The position numbers were made by a program, and so were the translations under genes. A model generated the notes under the pieces. That model worked only from the letters and a program-made list of their open reading frames with translations. It was not told the origin of the DNA and did not search any database. From an uncultured Spirochaetota bacterium (GTDB lineage: Bacteria > Spirochaetota > Brevinematia > Brevinematales > JAOACQ01), in contig CAWIGG010000004.1 in assembly GCA_963835575.1 (NCBI GenBank), forward strand, positions 704,001 to 768,000: a DNA stretch of 64,000 nucleotides, read 5' to 3'. Of the stretch, positions 3,754 through 36,313 are shown piece after piece; the stretch's first letter is position 1, and every line of letters begins with the position of its first letter.

Positions 3754-6381
3754 ATGAAGTCTTCTGAGATACGGAAAGCCTTTCTTGATTTTTTTAAAAG
3801 CAAAGGCCATACGATAGTCAAAAGCGCGCCGCTTGTGCCGGACAATGACCCGACGCTGCTATTTACAAATGCCGGGATGAACCAGTTCAAGGATATATTC
3901 CTCGGCACCGGCAAAAGGGATTATGTCCGCGCCGCTGATACTCAAAAGTGCATGCGCGTTTCAGGCAAGCATAATGACCTGGAAGACGTCGGCAAGGATA
4001 CCTATCATCATACCTTTTTCGAGATGCTGGGAAACTGGTCTTTCGGCGATTATTATAAAAAAGAAGCCATCTCCTGGGCATGGGAACTCCTGACCAAGGT
4101 CTGGAAGCTTCCCAGGGACAAGCTTTTCGCGACGGTGCATCATACCGATGATGAAGCCTTCGGTATATGGAGCGATGTTACAGACATAGCAAAAGACCAC
4201 ATCCTTAAATTCGGGGATAAAGACAATTTCTGGGAAATGGGCGCGACAGGACCATGCGGCCCATGTTCTGAGATACATATCGACAGGGGTGAAGCGGCCT
4301 GCGATAAAAAGCATATCAAGGGGCATAAGTGCTCTGTGAATGCCGGCTGCGCGCGGTATATCGAACTCTGGAACCTGGTTTTTATCCAGTATAACCGCAA
4401 TGAAGATACCACTCTTGAAGGGCTGCCCAATAAGCATGTGGATACCGGAATGGGTTATGAAAGGATCGTTTCGGTAGTCCAGGAAAAGTTGTCCAATTAT
4501 GAAACCGATCTGTTTATGCCTCTGATCAAAAAAGTGGAGGAAATGAGCGGCCGGAAATATGAAGAAAAAACAGGAATGCCCATGCGCGTCATCGCGGACC
4601 ACATCCGCGCATTGACATTTTCAATGGCTGATGGGGTTATGCCCTCCAATGAGGGACGCGGCTATGTGGTCCGTAAAATCCTCCGCAGGGCAATACGCTA
4701 CGGCAAGAAGCTCAATTTTACGGAACCGTTTTTAAACCAGCTTGTCGATACGGTCGTGTCCGTAATGGGGGACGCCTTTCCCGAACTTAAGGACCGGGCC
4801 AAGATGGTCAAATCGCTGATTTATTCTGAGGAAGAATCTTTTTTAAAAACGGTAAACAGGGGACTGGATAAATTGAACGAGATGGTGGAAGCGGCCAAAA
4901 AAAGTAAAACCGCAAGCATCAGCGGGGATGAGCTTTTTATACTTTACGACTCGCTCGGCCTGCCGCTGGATTTTATCCAGCATGTGGCGGAAGACGAGGC
5001 CCTGGCGCTGGATATGAAAGGCTTTGAGGCATTGATGGAAAAGCAGAAGGAAAGGGCGCGGGCAAGCTGGAAGGGCGAGGCTTTTGATTTCAAGATTATC
5101 GCCGGCGTTGCCAAGCCCACTGAATACACAGGCGAGGAAAATTATGAGGATAAAGGCACAATACAGCTGATCGTCAAAGGAAACACGCTTGTCGAGACTG
5201 CGTCGGAGAATGATGATATCGTTTTGATTTCCGATAAAACTCCCTTCTATCCCGAAAAGGGCGGCCAGGTGGGCGATGCCGGCGTGGCGGAAAAGGGCGA
5301 GGGGCGGATTGTGATACGGAACACAAAGGTTTTTGAAAATACAATCCTTCATTACGGCCAGGTATTGAACGGCGCTTTCAAATCCGGCGATAAAATCCTG
5401 CTCCGTGTGGATAAAGAAAAAAAAGAAGCGACTGCCCGGAACCATACCGCGACGCATATCATCCACAAGGCTTTAAGGAATGTTATAGGCGAGCATGCGG
5501 CGCAGGCCGGTTCACTGGTCGGCCCGGAAAGGCTCCGTTTTGACTTTACGCATTCCAAGGCATTGACAAAAGAAGAAATAGAAAAAATTGAGAATGAAGC
5601 GAACAGGATCGTCGTGCAGAATCTTCCCGTTGTTTTAAAAAAGATGACAAAAGACGAGGCCGTTAAAAGCGGCGCCGTTGCGATTTTTGAGGAAAAATAC
5701 GGCGATATTGTACGGGTTGTCGAAGTGAGCGGCTATTCGAAGGAACTCTGCGGCGGAACGCATGTCAATAGGAGCGGCGATATCGGGCTGATCAAGATCG
5801 CGGCCGAGAACTCCATTTCGGCCGGGACGAGAAGGCTCGAGGCCGTTACTGGATTGAATTCACTGGAGATGTTCAGAAACTATTATTATAAGGTCAAGGA
5901 AGCCGCCTCTTTTTTAAACACGGATGAGTCCAAGCTGATGGAAAGGCTGGAACAGACAAACGAATCTCTGAAGCAGAAAGATAAAAAAATCGATGAGCTG
6001 AAAGCGAAGCTGGCAAAATCCGGCCTGGATGAGCTGATAAAAAAGGCCGAAAAAATCGGCGGCGCTTCCGTCATCATCGCGAAAACGGATATGGACGCCA
6101 ACGCCATGCTTGCCGCGGGCGATGAATTCAAGGCGAAAGACATCGGCGTGATGTTCCTGATTTCTTCTGCCGCGAAAGACAAAGTAGCGATCACGGCCTG
6201 TGTTTCAAAATCCTATATAGGCAAAATAAAAGCGGGCGACATAGCGCGTGAAACGGCCAAAATAGTCGGCGGCGGCGGCGGCGGAAGGCCGGACCTGGCG
6301 CAGGCCGGCGGCAAGGATGCTTCTAAAATAGATGAGGCATTAAAGACGGCAAAAGAGATGATTGAAAAGGCGTTGAAATAA
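3754..6381 (+). CDS. alaS: Alanine--tRNA ligase
   Basis: DPTLLFTNAGMNQFK, HHTFFEMLGNWSFGDY, HTATH editing motif, ELCGGTHV, C-terminal GGGGGR. Confidence 0.99.
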   Translation: MKSSEIRKAFLDFFKSKGHTIVKSAPLVPDNDPTLLFTNAGMNQFKDIFLGTGKRDYVRAADTQKCMRVSGKHNDLEDVGKDTYHHTFFEMLGNWSFGDYYKKEAISWAWELLTKVWKLPRDKLFATVHHTDDEAFGIWSDVTDIAKDHILKFGDKDNFWEMGATGPCGPCSEIHIDRGEAACDKKHIKGHKCSVNAGCARYIELWNLVFIQYNRNEDTTLEGLPNKHVDTGMGYERIVSVVQEKLSNYETDLFMPLIKKVEEMSGRKYEEKTGMPMRVIADHIRALTFSMADGVMPSNEGRGYVVRKILRRAIRYGKKLNFTEPFLNQLVDTVVSVMGDAFPELKDRAKMVKSLIYSEEESFLKTVNRGLDKLNEMVEAAKKSKTASISGDELFILYDSLGLPLDFIQHVAEDEALALDMKGFEALMEKQKERARASWKGEAFDFKIIAGVAKPTEYTGEENYEDKGTIQLIVKGNTLVETASENDDIVLISDKTPFYPEKGGQVGDAGVAEKGEGRIVIRNTKVFENTILHYGQVLNGAFKSGDKILLRVDKEKKEATARNHTATHIIHKALRNVIGEHAAQAGSLVGPERLRFDFTHSKALTKEEIEKIENEANRIVVQNLPVVLKKMTKDEAVKSGAVAIFEEKYGDIVRVVEVSGYSKELCGGTHVNRSGDIGLIKIAAENSISAGTRRLEAVTGLNSLEMFRNYYYKVKEAASFLNTDESKLMERLEQTNESLKQKDKKIDELKAKLAKSGLDELIKKAEKIGGASVIIAKTDMDANAMLAAGDEFKAKDIGVMFLISSAAKDKVAITACVSKSYIGKIKAGDIARETAKIVGGGGGGRPDLAQAGGKDASKIDEALKTAKEMIEKALK

Positions 6382-32497: not shown

Positions 32498-33217
32498 TTG
32501 CGTATGAAGGGCTCTCAAAAGAGCATCCGTGAATCGTTTTATACTTTTTCTTTTTCTCCTTTTATGTTAACTCTGTTTAAAGAGGACATTAAGCGGATCA
32601 TTGAAATCACGAAAAGCGATTTCCCAAAAGTCACAATCCAGATAGGCCAGTATACTCTGGAAAAAGAAATTAATGAGATATCGGATATTGAAGCCATCGC
32701 GAAAAGCAATCAAAAGAAACTCAGGGAATATCACTGCCTGTATATATTGGTTCAGACTTCGCCTAAGGAAACAGAAAAACCGTATATGATCATAGATATT
32801 TCGCCTTCCAGCTATAATTTGTTTATATCAGATTCGGAGGAAAAGAAATTAATTGCCCTCCATGCGAAAATAAAGGAAATAATGGTCAACAGAAATATAT
32901 ACCGGTTTTTTAAAAACAAAATCATTAATATTTTTGTATTGATTTGTGATGTATTTTTTGTTCTTTATGTGCTTTTTTTAAAGGATATTATTGAAAAGCT
33001 GATAAATTTTCGGATTCCGGACACATTGTTTTTACTCGCGGCCCTGCTTGTGAATATAATCTTTATTGTGCCTCATGGGAAAAACAAGATTTATATTCAG
33101 GAGGAAAAGAAGGTCAGCGTATTTAAGAAAGACAGGGAAACGATCATGATCGGCGGCATCATCGCGGTGATCGGTATTATTCTTATATTTTCCATTTTAA
33201 AGTTATTCGGCATGTAA
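32498..33217 (+). CDS. Hypothetical membrane protein
   Basis: 239-aa ORF with RBS and three C-terminal hydrophobic segments. Confidence 0.65.
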   Translation: MRMKGSQKSIRESFYTFSFSPFMLTLFKEDIKRIIEITKSDFPKVTIQIGQYTLEKEINEISDIEAIAKSNQKKLREYHCLYILVQTSPKETEKPYMIIDISPSSYNLFISDSEEKKLIALHAKIKEIMVNRNIYRFFKNKIINIFVLICDVFFVLYVLFLKDIIEKLINFRIPDTLFLLAALLVNIIFIVPHGKNKIYIQEEKKVSVFKKDRETIMIGGIIAVIGIILIFSILKLFGM

Positions 33218-33222
33218 TATAA

Positions 33223-33386
33223 GGGCAGTTCCAAAAACCTTAAGTTTTTAGGAACTGCCCCGGTTATAAAAACTTTTTGGTTAATGTAAATGACGCTACT
33301 GCGTGGAGTTTGCAAAGCAAACTTAGCAGTTGCATGAATCAAAACAATGTCGGCAGTTCTAAAAATATGAGTTTTTAGAACTGCCC
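33223..33386. mobile_element. MITE-like three-hairpin element, copy 2
   Basis: GGGCAGTTCCAAAAAC...GGAACTGCCC; central GAGTTTGCAAAGCAAACTT; GGCAGTTCTAAAAA...TTTTTAGAACTGCCC; 4-bp TSD ATAA. Confidence 0.85.
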
Positions 33387-33413
33387 ATAAGTTAAGGCGG
33401 GAGGGGATTAAAA

Positions 33414-35516
33414 ATGGAACAGCTTGTGAAGGATTTGGTCCAATCAAAGAAATCAATCAATCAAAGCGCTTTCGTTAAAAAGAGAGACGGAAGGATCACT
33501 GATTTTGACGCGTCCAAGATAGCATCCGCTGTTAATAAGGCTTTCGTGGCGACAGGTGAGGGCAATTATAATCAGGCCTGGGAAATCACGGCCATGATAG
33601 TCAGCAAGCTTGAAGAAAAGGTTGTTGAAATCGAGCATATCCAGGATATTGTTGAAGACACGCTGATGAACATGGGTTTTAGAAAAGCCGCAAAATCCTA
33701 CATTCTTTACCGCGCTAAAAGAAGCGAGCTCCGCAATATCAATAAAACCCTGAATGAAAGTTTAAATATGATCGAAGACTATGTGCATCTGCGGGACTGG
33801 AGGGTCAATGAAAACAGCAACATGAGCTATTCCCTGCAGGGCCTGAACTCGCATGTCTCTTCCACAATTACGGCTAATTACTGGCTGACTAAAATATATA
33901 CTCCCGATATCGGGGAGGCGCACCGCAGCGGCGCCGTTCATATCCATGACCTTGGTTCATTGTCGGCCTATTGCGTGGGCTGGGACCTGGAACAGCTTTT
34001 GATCCAGGGATTCGGCGGCGTCGTCGGCAAGGTGGAAAGCAAGCCAGCCAGGCATTTCCGCGCGGCGCTCGGACAGATCGTTAATTTCTTTTATACCCTC
34101 CAGGGCGAGGCGGCAGGAGCGCAGGCTTTTGCCAATATCGATACGCTCCTGGCGCCCTTTATCCGCCATGACAAGCTCAGTTATAATGAAGTCAAGCAGG
34201 CCATGCAGGAATTCGTCTTTAACCTCAATGTGCCGACGCGGACCGGCTTTCAGACTCCTTTTACAAACCTGACCTTTGACCTTGTCTGCCCTTCTTATTT
34301 CAGGGATAAGGGCGTGATCATCGGAGGGGAAATCCAGGACGAAACCTATTCGGAATTCAAGAAGGAAATGGAATATATCAATCAGGCGTTCGCGGAAGTG
34401 ATGCTGGAAGGCGACGCGAAAAACAGGCCCTTTACATTCCCGATCCCGACATATAATATCACTAAGAAATTTGACTGGGAAAACCCGGCTTATAATAAGA
34501 TCTGGGAAATGACGGCCAAGTACGGGACCCCCTATTTCAGTAATTTTATCAACTCGGATATGAGCGAGGAAGACACCAGAAGCATGTGCTGCCGGCTCAA
34601 ACTGGATAACCGGGAGGTCAGGGCCCAGCTGGACAAGATGGCTCAGAAGCATGGCGAAGAAACCGGGCAGGGAAAAAGAGGCGGGCTTTTTGCCGCGAAC
34701 CCGATGACCGGTTCCATCGGTGTTGTGACGATCAACCTGCCGCGGATAGCTTATTCGGCAAAATCCGAAGAAGAGTTTTTAGAATCCCTCCGCCAGATGA
34801 TGGTCCTCTCAAAAAATTCCCTGGAAATGAAAAGAAAAATGATCGAGGACCTGACTGACAGAGGGCTTTATCCTTATACGCGTATTTATCTTCAGGATAT
34901 TAAAAAAAGAAGCGGAAGATACTGGACAAACCATTTTTCAACAATAGGCATGATCGGTATGAATGAAGCGGTGATGAATTTTATTAAAAAGCCTTATCAT
35001 ACTGAAGAAGGCAGGAATTTTGGAATAAAGGTCCTGGATTTTATGCTCGAAGTCCTCGAGGGCTTTAAGCGCGAAACGGGGCATCTTTATAATCTTGAAG
35101 CCTCCCCGGCTGAAGGCGCGAGCTTCCGCCTGGCAAAGGCGGACAAAAAGAGTTTTCCGGAAATCATTTCTTCCGGTACGCAGGAAGCGCCTTATTATAC
35201 CAATTCCGTCCATCTGCCTGTCAACGCCACGGATGACATTTTTGAGCTTCTTGACCATCAGGACCCTCTTCAGGCTAAATTTACGGGAGGGACGGTCATC
35301 CATATCTTCCTGGGAGAAAAAGTGAAGAACCCGGCAGCTATCGCCGGTATGGTCAAGACTGTGGCGAGCCAGTATCATCTGCCTTATTTTTCAATAACGC
35401 CGACATTTTCCATTTGCCCTGTTCATGGCTACATAAACGGCGAACAATGGATCTGCCCGCTGCCGCATACGGATGAAGAATTGAAAAAATACGGGAAATA
35501 TATTGAAAGTATATAA
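33414..35516 (+). CDS. nrdD: Anaerobic (class III) ribonucleoside-triphosphate reductase, large subunit lacking the glycyl-radical segment
   Basis: ATP cone (VKKRDGRITDFDASKI); HIHDL; RSMCCRL; NLEASPAEG; TGGTVIH; SITPTFSICPVHGY; ends before any RxxGY motif. Confidence 0.93.
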   Translation: MEQLVKDLVQSKKSINQSAFVKKRDGRITDFDASKIASAVNKAFVATGEGNYNQAWEITAMIVSKLEEKVVEIEHIQDIVEDTLMNMGFRKAAKSYILYRAKRSELRNINKTLNESLNMIEDYVHLRDWRVNENSNMSYSLQGLNSHVSSTITANYWLTKIYTPDIGEAHRSGAVHIHDLGSLSAYCVGWDLEQLLIQGFGGVVGKVESKPARHFRAALGQIVNFFYTLQGEAAGAQAFANIDTLLAPFIRHDKLSYNEVKQAMQEFVFNLNVPTRTGFQTPFTNLTFDLVCPSYFRDKGVIIGGEIQDETYSEFKKEMEYINQAFAEVMLEGDAKNRPFTFPIPTYNITKKFDWENPAYNKIWEMTAKYGTPYFSNFINSDMSEEDTRSMCCRLKLDNREVRAQLDKMAQKHGEETGQGKRGGLFAANPMTGSIGVVTINLPRIAYSAKSEEEFLESLRQMMVLSKNSLEMKRKMIEDLTDRGLYPYTRIYLQDIKKRSGRYWTNHFSTIGMIGMNEAVMNFIKKPYHTEEGRNFGIKVLDFMLEVLEGFKRETGHLYNLEASPAEGASFRLAKADKKSFPEIISSGTQEAPYYTNSVHLPVNATDDIFELLDHQDPLQAKFTGGTVIHIFLGEKVKNPAAIAGMVKTVASQYHLPYFSITPTFSICPVHGYINGEQWICPLPHTDEELKKYGKYIESI

Positions 35517-35547
35517 TTTTACCGATGATTTGAGGGAGGGGTTTTTT

Positions 35548-35700
35548 ATGGAACAGAATGAAAATAAGCGTCTGGTGATTCCGACGGAAGTTTATTCCAG
35601 GATTGTGGGATATTACCGGCCGGTCCAGCATTGGAATGTGGGGAAACAGCAGGAATTTTCCGAACGGAATACTTATGAGGAAAAACTGATCGTTGAATAA
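35548..35700 (+). CDS. Stand-alone NrdD C-terminal glycyl-radical peptide (50 aa)
   Basis: RBS GGAGGG then ATG 35548; PTEVYSRIVGYYRPVQHWNVGKQQEFSER. Confidence 0.88.
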   Translation: MEQNENKRLVIPTEVYSRIVGYYRPVQHWNVGKQQEFSERNTYEEKLIVE

Positions 35701-35716
35701 TTGATGATATTAACCG

Positions 35717-36313
35717 ATGTTCAGGGGAATTCAGAAGACTTCGCTGATCGATTATCCTCCGTATATATCTTCGACTTTATTTACCGGCGGATGCAATTTC
35801 AGGTGTCCATGGTGCCATAACTGGGATCTGGTATTGCCTGAGCTTTATGAGAAATTACCGGTAATCAAAGAAGATGAAGTTAAAGACTATCTTGTTTCAA
35901 AAAAAGGCAAAATCCAGGGCGTCTGTGTGACAGGTGGGGAGCCGACCCTCTGGGGAGAAAGGCTGGCCGGTTTTTTTGACTGGTGCAGAAAGAACGGCTT
36001 TTTGACCAAGCTGGATACAAACGGTTACCTGCCGGATGTGCTGAAGGGATATATTGATAGGAATCTGCTGGATTTTATCGCCATGGATATTAAAAACACT
36101 TTTCCGAAATATAAAAAAACAACAGGAATGACTGAACTGGATATCAAAAGAATAAAGAAATCCATAAAGATTATTCAGGACAGCGGCGTCAGGCATCAAT
36201 TCCGGACAACCCTTGTCCCAGGGCTTGTTGAAGAAAATGAAATAAAAATAATTGAAGAAGACTTGGAAGAGGAAATATTATTCCAGGAATATCGGAATGA
36301 TAAAAATAGCTGA
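35717..36313 (+). CDS. nrdG: Anaerobic RNR activating radical SAM protein
   Basis: SLIDYP, GCNFRCPWCHN, VTGGEPT, KLDTNG; adjacent to nrdD. Confidence 0.93.
   Translation: MFRGIQKTSLIDYPPYISSTLFTGGCNFRCPWCHNWDLVLPELYEKLPVIKEDEVKDYLVSKKGKIQGVCVTGGEPTLWGERLAGFFDWCRKNGFLTKLDTNGYLPDVLKGYIDRNLLDFIAMDIKNTFPKYKKTTGMTELDIKRIKKSIKIIQDSGVRHQFRTTLVPGLVEENEIKIIEEDLEEEILFQEYRNDKNS

Follow-up and report, generated by a model that had tools for sequence, protein, structure and literature searches.

Can a class III ribonucleotide reductase (RNR) be built from two gene products, with its glycyl-radical loop encoded apart from the catalytic chain? This question is raised by a locus on contig CAWIGG010000004.1 (assembly GCA_963835575.1) from an uncultured Spirochaetota bacterium of the order Brevinematales. 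The locus lies in a stretch of 64,000 nucleotides (nt; contig positions 704,001 to 768,000), which is called the window and whose own positions are used throughout; the genome to which it belongs, 94% complete, is called G000. An earlier reading made from the letters alone (the sequence-only reading) had described an NrdD that ends without the RxxGY motif, and a separate 50-residue open reading frame (ORF) that holds the motif, has its own ribosome-binding site, begins 31 nt downstream and directly precedes nrdG. The sequence and the division of the profile PF13597 both bear this description out. We consider that the 50-residue product is probably an obligate, trans-acting subunit of a two-chain class III RNR that bears the glycyl radical, as judged from sequence comparison and a structural model. 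The genes and signals of the locus are as follows.

33400..33404, plus strand: Shine-Dalgarno site of nrdD (GGAGG), seen in the sequence
33414..35516, plus strand: nrdD body, 700 amino acids (aa), catalytic chain of a class III RNR without the glycyl-radical loop, assigned by PF13597, PRK08270, its fold and the absence of RxxGY
35517..35547, plus strand: spacer of 31 nt with a Shine-Dalgarno site (GGAGG) at 35535-35539, seen in the sequence; its length and frame vary among relatives
35548..35700, plus strand: glycyl-radical peptide gene, 50 aa, with the radical candidate Gly21 in R-I-V-G-Y (codon 35608-35610), assigned by PF13597, invariance and selection
35717..36313, plus strand: nrdG, radical S-adenosylmethionine (SAM) activase, 198 aa, assigned by TIGR02495 and CxxxCxxC

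The nrdD gene ends in a TAA stop codon, and 8 nt separate the GGAGG of the peptide gene from its ATG at 35548. The peptide ORF, which is in the +1 frame relative to nrdD, carries EVYSRIVGYYRP, and nrdG starts 16 nt past it without a Shine-Dalgarno motif. The 562 positions of PF13597 divide cleanly between the two products: the body takes 1-527 and the peptide 533-562. No R..G[YF] motif was found anywhere in the 700 residues of the body, and the RxxGY expected on the same chain is obtained only when both chains are taken together. The peptide profile matches the C-terminus of T. maritima NrdD (residues 610-645), and R18 and G21 of the peptide are invariant in all 40 sequences aligned. NrdG, whose gene adjoins the peptide gene, has its CxxxCxxC at residue 26, and its TIGR02495 score of 166.6 bits (cut-off 131.15) is the sole above-cut-off match in the genome. 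G000 has a single NrdD body and a single peptide, and no second or intact nrdD was found in this 94% complete genome. It is because of this last result that the peptide is regarded as obligate, as the sequence-only reading had supposed.

We can then ask whether these are really two genes. A sequencing or assembly error, or a recent pseudogenisation of a one-chain nrdD, is a negligible explanation, since the same split is shared by 10 of 11 genomes sampled from the family and is found in complete genomes, the spacer varies freely between relatives and the catalytic residues are kept on both parts, even though the +1 frame of the peptide is already open 32 nt upstream of where the nrdD stop codon ends and the junction is bridged by no read or contig. 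No contig across the junction was found (the pieces closest to it stop at 35512 and begin at 35527), and two DNA runs contained only 11% and 7% of the sequence words; neither finding says anything about expression.

Production of a single chain by recoding (programmed frameshift, read-through or hopping) or by RNA or protein splicing is very improbable. It is favoured by two genomes, G016 and G231, where the peptide is in frame past one stop codon, and by the existence of natural fusions. The layout of the relatives speaks against it. Gaps between body and peptide range from -32 to 1205 nt, and frames 0, +1 and +2 occur 19, 27 and 20 times, among 66 adjacent pairs; these pairs are enriched by selection, and the 105-locus set is not a frequency sample (60 loci were picked from early-ending rows, 14 duplicate or partial loci were dropped, and the loci kept have a body ORF of more than 350 aa and no open end). 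In a locus with an 88% identical NrdD (L034), a stop codon in the peptide frame stands immediately 5' of the ATG, and in another (L037:5110-6314, genome G276) the spacer contains a 375-codon ORF that is transposase-like by eye. No Rfam match was found at the locus and no intein family on either chain, so no intron, intein or endonuclease was found at the 31-nt break. A Shine-Dalgarno motif precedes 61 of the 66 adjacent peptide genes and 150 of 1176 internal ATGs, the former count being inflated because the starts were chosen by that motif.

Further evidence comes from genomes in which the operon is broken. In the complete genomes G085, G015 and G042, the body lies 527-602 kb from the peptide gene and nrdG; these are of one genus and therefore count as one event. 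In G014, G029 and G087, the body, the peptide and nrdG are at three separate places. Because genes that complete genomes place more than 500 kb from each other cannot give one chain by these routes, the peptide must act in trans there if the enzymes work. Frameshift and read-through were tried as candidates and are ruled out by the spacer lengths, the use of all three frames and these distances. Two claims of the sequence-only reading, that a simple frameshift does not account for the break and that the peptide acts in trans, have thus been strengthened, the first by the conserved split and the free length and frame of the spacer, the second by the gene distance, with backing from the co-fold described below.

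As to how widespread the split is, the nearest loci are from Brevinematales (phylum Spirochaetota), where close relatives with 77-88% identical NrdD are split likewise and do not have one continuous ORF; G153 is the exception among the same-family genomes, with a fused gene. With NrdD residues 480-700 as the query, RxxGY is missing in 111 of the 119 nearest homologues, and the CxxH...CxxxH metal site is present in all 119. The proposal that homologues of this type are always split therefore holds for the large majority and is not universal, since the other eight are one-chain proteins. Among 301 Spirochaetota genomes, an NrdD body was found in 154 and a match to the peptide profile in 144, all of them within those 154 (the overlap was established by reading both lists), and the profile matched in none of the 147 genomes without an NrdD match. 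Among the peptide matches listed (150 of 174 rows, covering 126 genomes), the frame that holds the peptide is no longer than 238 aa in 107 genomes and is 710 aa or longer in 19. Among all prokaryotes, the best 80 genome loci by the peptide profile comprise 32 split, 42 fused and 6 lone ones, and split loci span at least nine named phyla, including Thermodesulfobacteriota, Chloroflexota, Aquificota and an archaeal group.

For 33 peptide codons compared across 18 relatives, the proportion of synonymous differences (pS) is 0.58-1.10 and that of nonsynonymous differences (pN) 0.019-0.130, and nucleotide differences at the three codon positions number 88, 28 and 324. These values indicate that the peptide is under purifying selection. 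From comparisons of this kind we judge the two-gene class III RNR to be real, ancient and widespread. In a distant NrdD lineage, an ERIRRITGY peptide lies between body and activase (L029:1226-1393 and L031:3487-3648), and the split in that lineage looks like an independent origin by its sequence.

By profile and fold, the body itself is a class III RNR. It matches PF13597 with an E-value of 7e-179, PRK08270 with 991.7 bits (cut-off 548) and TIGR02487 with 506 bits (cut-off 326), and its AlphaFold model, with a predicted local distance difference test (pLDDT) value of 84, has only class III RNRs as Foldseek top matches. The following features can be placed on it.

33471..33728, plus strand: ATP-cone, residues 20-105 (PF03477, E-value 1e-20)
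33972..33974, plus strand: Cys187, putative conserved beta-A cysteine, invariant in 60 of 60 split bodies and aligned with the T. maritima cysteine, from which its role is suggested
34584..34595, plus strand: finger-loop MCCR (M391-C392-C393-R394) of the double-cysteine subclass, invariant in 60 of 60 split bodies
35097..35099, plus strand: Glu562, likely the active-site glutamate of a redoxin-capable NrdD, present in 60 of 60
35415..35468, plus strand: putative metal site C668-x2-H671 ... C681-x3-H685, from the alignment of 60, probably binding zinc
35469..35513, plus strand: C-terminal tail, helix 687-693 followed by YGKYIESI, predicted docking site of the peptide from the AlphaFold model and the co-fold interface

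The MCCR motif is used as defined in section 2.5 of PMC9669993, in the part of that source available to us. At the position of Glu562, T. maritima has a Glu and P. copri a Leu. Of the metal-site residues, C668, H671 and C681 are present in all 60 split bodies and H685 in 40. The sequence-only reading had called the metal site altered and the tail distinct. This stands for the tail and for the second half of the site, where CxxC is replaced by CxxxH, while the first half, CPxHGY, is normal for the PRK08270 subfamily, one-chain members included; the novelty of the body is thus limited to the second metal half and a tail consisting of a helix and a strand.

How such a body could hold a separate radical peptide was approached by co-folding residues 108-700 of the body with the peptide and zinc, a run in which our own alignments and the zinc ion are outside the calibration of the method. 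The score was 0.84, in comparison with 0.00 for the best of three controls, and a mark of 0.84 is reached by 116 of 157 solved complexes and by 2 of 215 mismatched pairs. The runs share at least 88% of contacts, the pLDDT of the partner is at least 74, and the predicted interface has 172-188 contacts. The best contacts join peptide strand 11-16 to body strands 664-668 and 677-681, and body tail residues 685, 689-690 and 693-699 are within the predicted interface, where they contact the N-terminal part of the peptide. Co-folding, which the sequence-only reading had suggested with NrdG included, here gives support for binding of the peptide to the body.

Natural fusions and co-variation point in the same direction. 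In a model of the G153 fusion, the tail (697-700) and LVIP of the peptide part (721-724) are both strands around a disordered linker; the tail, a coil in the AlphaFold model of the free body, is a strand there, and in some fused homologues YGK is linked to the peptide strand via a short turn. A peptide with [VIM]P-x-E accompanies 39 of the 41 CxxxH-type split bodies, and a peptide beginning with a long helix accompanies 16 of the 25 CxxC-type bodies that have a long terminal helix. We therefore regard the body tail and the peptide start as co-varying, on comparative grounds. A CxxC domain is carried by 17 of the 66 adjacent peptides and is glutaredoxin-like in the one scanned. As side observations, L030, L032, L033, L074-L076, L083, L087 and nine more loci encode radical peptides 154-216 aa long, which have a helix at the N-terminus and a glutaredoxin-like CxxC domain at the C-terminus, and a fused NrdD with such a domain occurs at L018, L019 and L025.

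The mechanism that we propose is as follows. The nrdD gene is divided just past the metal site, which leaves the catalytic body and the glycyl-radical loop to separate genes, and the peptide is predicted to dock on the body and so to replace the covalent link. By analogy with known class III chemistry, NrdG would abstract a hydrogen from Gly21 of the peptide, after which the radical loop would insert into the barrel and hand the radical to one of the finger-loop cysteines. A redoxin or formate would re-reduce the active site, and MCCR together with Glu562 would permit either. Oxygen would cut the peptide and spare the body. The chemistry behind these steps is that given in the accessible parts of PMC11226230, PMC9669993 and PMC12662201.

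Several observations weigh against this reading of an obligate radical subunit or against an adaptive purpose for it. The finger-loop cysteines 392-393 are absent from the confident contacts of the co-fold, and the co-fold may pass through resemblance to solved one-chain NrdD structures. For these two reasons, the second of which may apply to the two parts of any split gene, the co-fold supports binding without showing it. G000 also encodes a second, class II-type reductase with an NPCGE motif and a C-terminal cysteine-rich finger (L003:1252-3684, contig G000:C2), and the class III enzyme therefore need not be essential here. The split or fused state changes at least six times on a 103-row FastTree, and a hand-picked tree of 34 rows gives 10 changes, 8 of them forced by strong branches; the number and direction of the fissions are not fixed by FastTree-type trees of this kind. 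One-chain members are interspersed among the split ones (8 of the 119 nearest homologues and 42 of the 80 peptide-profile loci).

It may also be asked whether the peptide serves another role altogether, as a spare part of a different enzyme or a substrate of a radical SAM protein, with the body inactive or fed with its radical in another way. This is improbable. The peptide does stay beside nrdG, not nrdD, where the operon breaks; in G014 (L122:1441-1614) and G029 (L123:1492-1686) it precedes a different radical SAM gene, of the GPVxSRRLG type, with nrdG elsewhere; and lone copies are found on viral contigs. Against this, the peptide supplies exactly the missing part of the NrdD profile, its binding to the body is predicted, it was found in none of the 147 Spirochaetota genomes without NrdD, and a search of G000 found no match to the PFL-type (pyruvate formate-lyase-type) glycyl-radical domain PF01228, the peptide matching PF13597 only.

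There remain two explanations that accept a working two-chain enzyme and differ in why it is split. According to the first, the flexible linker acts as a hinge at which the gene breaks and rejoins almost neutrally, and the peptide stays bound for life without exchange. It shares the mechanism set out above, denies any spare-part advantage, and in our judgement has slightly under an even chance of being correct. The split may be neutral and not an adaptation to oxygen because the split and fused states have switched many times and searches of the 94% complete G000 gave no terminal oxidase (neither cytochrome bd nor a heme-copper oxidase, COX1). The repeated switching itself fits a near-neutral hinge as well as adaptation. 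The large predicted interface also suits a permanently bound peptide. The fused nrdD of G153 (L028/L129) retains an in-frame GAGGAGG and ATG in the linker before the peptide part, and this gene, from its sequence, may be a recent re-fusion or may make both a long chain and a free peptide. This explanation has to face the fact that entire orders have kept the split, with two kinds of dedicated docking tail, as well as the lone peptides at viral loci and the extra copies in 17 of the 126 genomes among the matches listed, one of which is linked to a riboswitch.

According to the second explanation, which we put forward only tentatively, the peptide is an exchangeable radical cartridge: a subunit of 40-190 residues, charged by NrdG, with two separately evolved docking modules, which would be swapped after cleavage by oxygen and dosed independently of the body. 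The docking modules would be the tail strand or a pair of helices; to the pair of helices a glutaredoxin-like domain is often fused, which would also re-reduce the site. Dosing would occur through additional copies, either controlled by a B12 riboswitch or carried by phages. At viral loci, the peptide is without a nearby body in 68 of 80, and at least 2.5 kb upstream is in view for 51 of those. The riboswitch-linked extra copy (L297:3525-3689, G203) has a gene for a BtuB-like receptor on one side and cobS/cobT on the other, and is downstream of an adenosylcobalamin (AdoCbl) riboswitch (5880-6005). Taken together, the viral lone copies, the extra copies and the riboswitch-linked copy suggest a supply or regulation of the peptide that is separate from the body. 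The argument of the sequence-only reading that oxygen damage would cost only 50 residues follows from the site of oxygen cleavage; for a gain, the cut peptide would have to be released and replaced.

Some other copies were noted in passing. In G083 (L298), another extra peptide copy is in a corrinoid/cobalt transport cluster, where it is encoded on the opposite strand and its start is unclear, and in G253 two tandem peptide genes lie between nrdD and nrdG (L293:2677-3081). The lone copies at L127, L294, L295 and L300 and the viral loci L208-L287 are among phage-like genes by eye, and several viral copies bear N- or C-terminal extensions with cysteine pairs.

In the surroundings of the locus in the window, promoter and terminator scans were at chance level (7 hits with 5.3 expected and 3 with 3.9 expected, respectively), and no match to an NrdR-box consensus was found upstream of nrdD. 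A palindromic intergenic repeat of 34-36 nt (GGCAGTT...AACTGCC) starts at 33224, 33352, 36928 and 43550; it has 30 strict-pattern copies genome-wide, and two of them flank the region upstream of nrdD. A 239-aa ORF upstream of nrdD (32498-33217) has hydrophobic C-terminal stretches and no Pfam or NCBIfam match.

The same split is present in a well-studied bacterium, Cupriavidus necator H16. On its plasmid pHG1, a body of 676 aa and 76.2 kDa (H16_RS32680), without RxxGY and 47% identical to the NrdD body of the window, is followed after 142 nt by the 66-aa H16_RS32675, which holds the motif in the form RVMGY, and then by nrdG. Three further plasmid records have the same two-CDS (coding sequence) layout, four of the 156 matching records having been opened. 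Residue 650 of the H16 body (L305:1750-4826) is the metal-site Gly of CPTHGY and equals G672 of the window's body. Siedow and colleagues in 1999 reportedly treated this locus as nrdD and nrdG with a 76.2-kDa NrdD, and are said to have assigned the radical site to G650 from a G650A mutant. If this account is right, the split enzyme would be functional in vivo, and the radical glycine would have been misassigned since 1999. The part of PMC2864759 available to us states, citing Siedow et al. (1999), that nrdDG is indispensable for full denitrification by H16, and lists nrdD and nrdG of C. metallidurans as Rmet_5137 and Rmet_5139. Entries on expression or fitness of the small ORF in C. necator were found neither in the supplements of PMC8591527 and PMC3734047 nor in the portion of those of PMC2864759 at hand; the full tables are perhaps outside these.

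Comparison with known systems is useful for placing this enzyme. The closest is the one-chain NrdD with NrdG of the MCCR subclass, which has the same fold, the ATP-cone and finger loop, a counterpart of the putative metal site, the RxxGY loop and an activase of the NrdG2 type; solved one-chain relatives are those of T. maritima (4COI/4U3E), P. copri (8P23), S. thermophilus (9D3X) and phage T4 (1H79). The present enzyme differs in that a gene of its own encodes the RxxGY loop with the C-terminal tail, a His apparently serves as the fourth metal ligand, and the body has an additional terminal helix and strand. The glycyl-radical domain is placed at the C-terminus of the catalytic chain in the accessible parts of PMC9669993, PMC9531940, PMC11226230, PMC12662201 and PMC4009431, and those of PMC4390871, PMC3019208, PMC2795772 and PMC11540253 give the same one-chain picture.

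GrcA (YfiD) of E. coli and Y06I of phage T4 are likewise small separate proteins with a glycyl-radical loop, charged by a radical SAM enzyme and working in a large barrel (PMC8683613, as far as available). GrcA is a PFL-type protein of 127 aa that rescues an oxygen-cut copy of a full-length enzyme, whereas the peptide of the window is of the NrdD type and constitutive, and is set apart from such a spare part by the lack of an intact enzyme that it could repair. Among the matches listed, a fused NrdD and a short-frame match occur together in none of the 126 genomes, and G058 has a weak lone copy. By analogy, the two-chain RNR would work like GrcA without belonging to the GrcA family.

Split RNR genes of other kinds, class II NrdJa/NrdJb of P. 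aeruginosa and split phage nrdA and nrdD, resemble the present locus in that a catalytic gene is divided into consecutive ORFs. In those cases a redox or zinc-finger tail is detached, or the break originates from an intron, intein or homing endonuclease, and none described detaches the glycyl-radical site. The portions of PMC9669993, PMC3653736 and PMC4009431 available to us give as RNR splits only class II genes and phage genes broken by introns or inteins. No description of a two-chain layout with a separate radical peptide was found in open-licence PMC or bioRxiv, subscription journals being outside this search. The two-CDS nrdD loci in RefSeq, such as that of C. necator H16 pHG1, have an identical gene layout by automatic annotation, with no explanation attached, and annotation in RefSeq and JGI already names the small ORF after the enzyme.

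Much of this subfamily, with C. necator H16 and the majority of the Spirochaetota sampled among it, departs from the one-chain description of class III RNRs. It is misleading to annotate either piece as complete, as truncated or as a pseudogene, and a recombinant NrdD from such organisms would be inactive without the overlooked gene of about 50 codons. The peptide is also a natural minimal substrate for studying radical installation by NrdG, and it offers a possible explanation for the lone "nrdD" mini-genes on phages. Whether spare parts serve enzymes beyond PFL is called undetermined in the accessible part of a 2026 review (PMC13450708); the present locus offers a direct test of that question on radical-carrier parts, and the split in C. 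necator H16 allows genetic testing. If the peptide is indeed exchanged as a cartridge, it would be the first case of glycyl-radical spare-part logic outside pyruvate formate-lyase.

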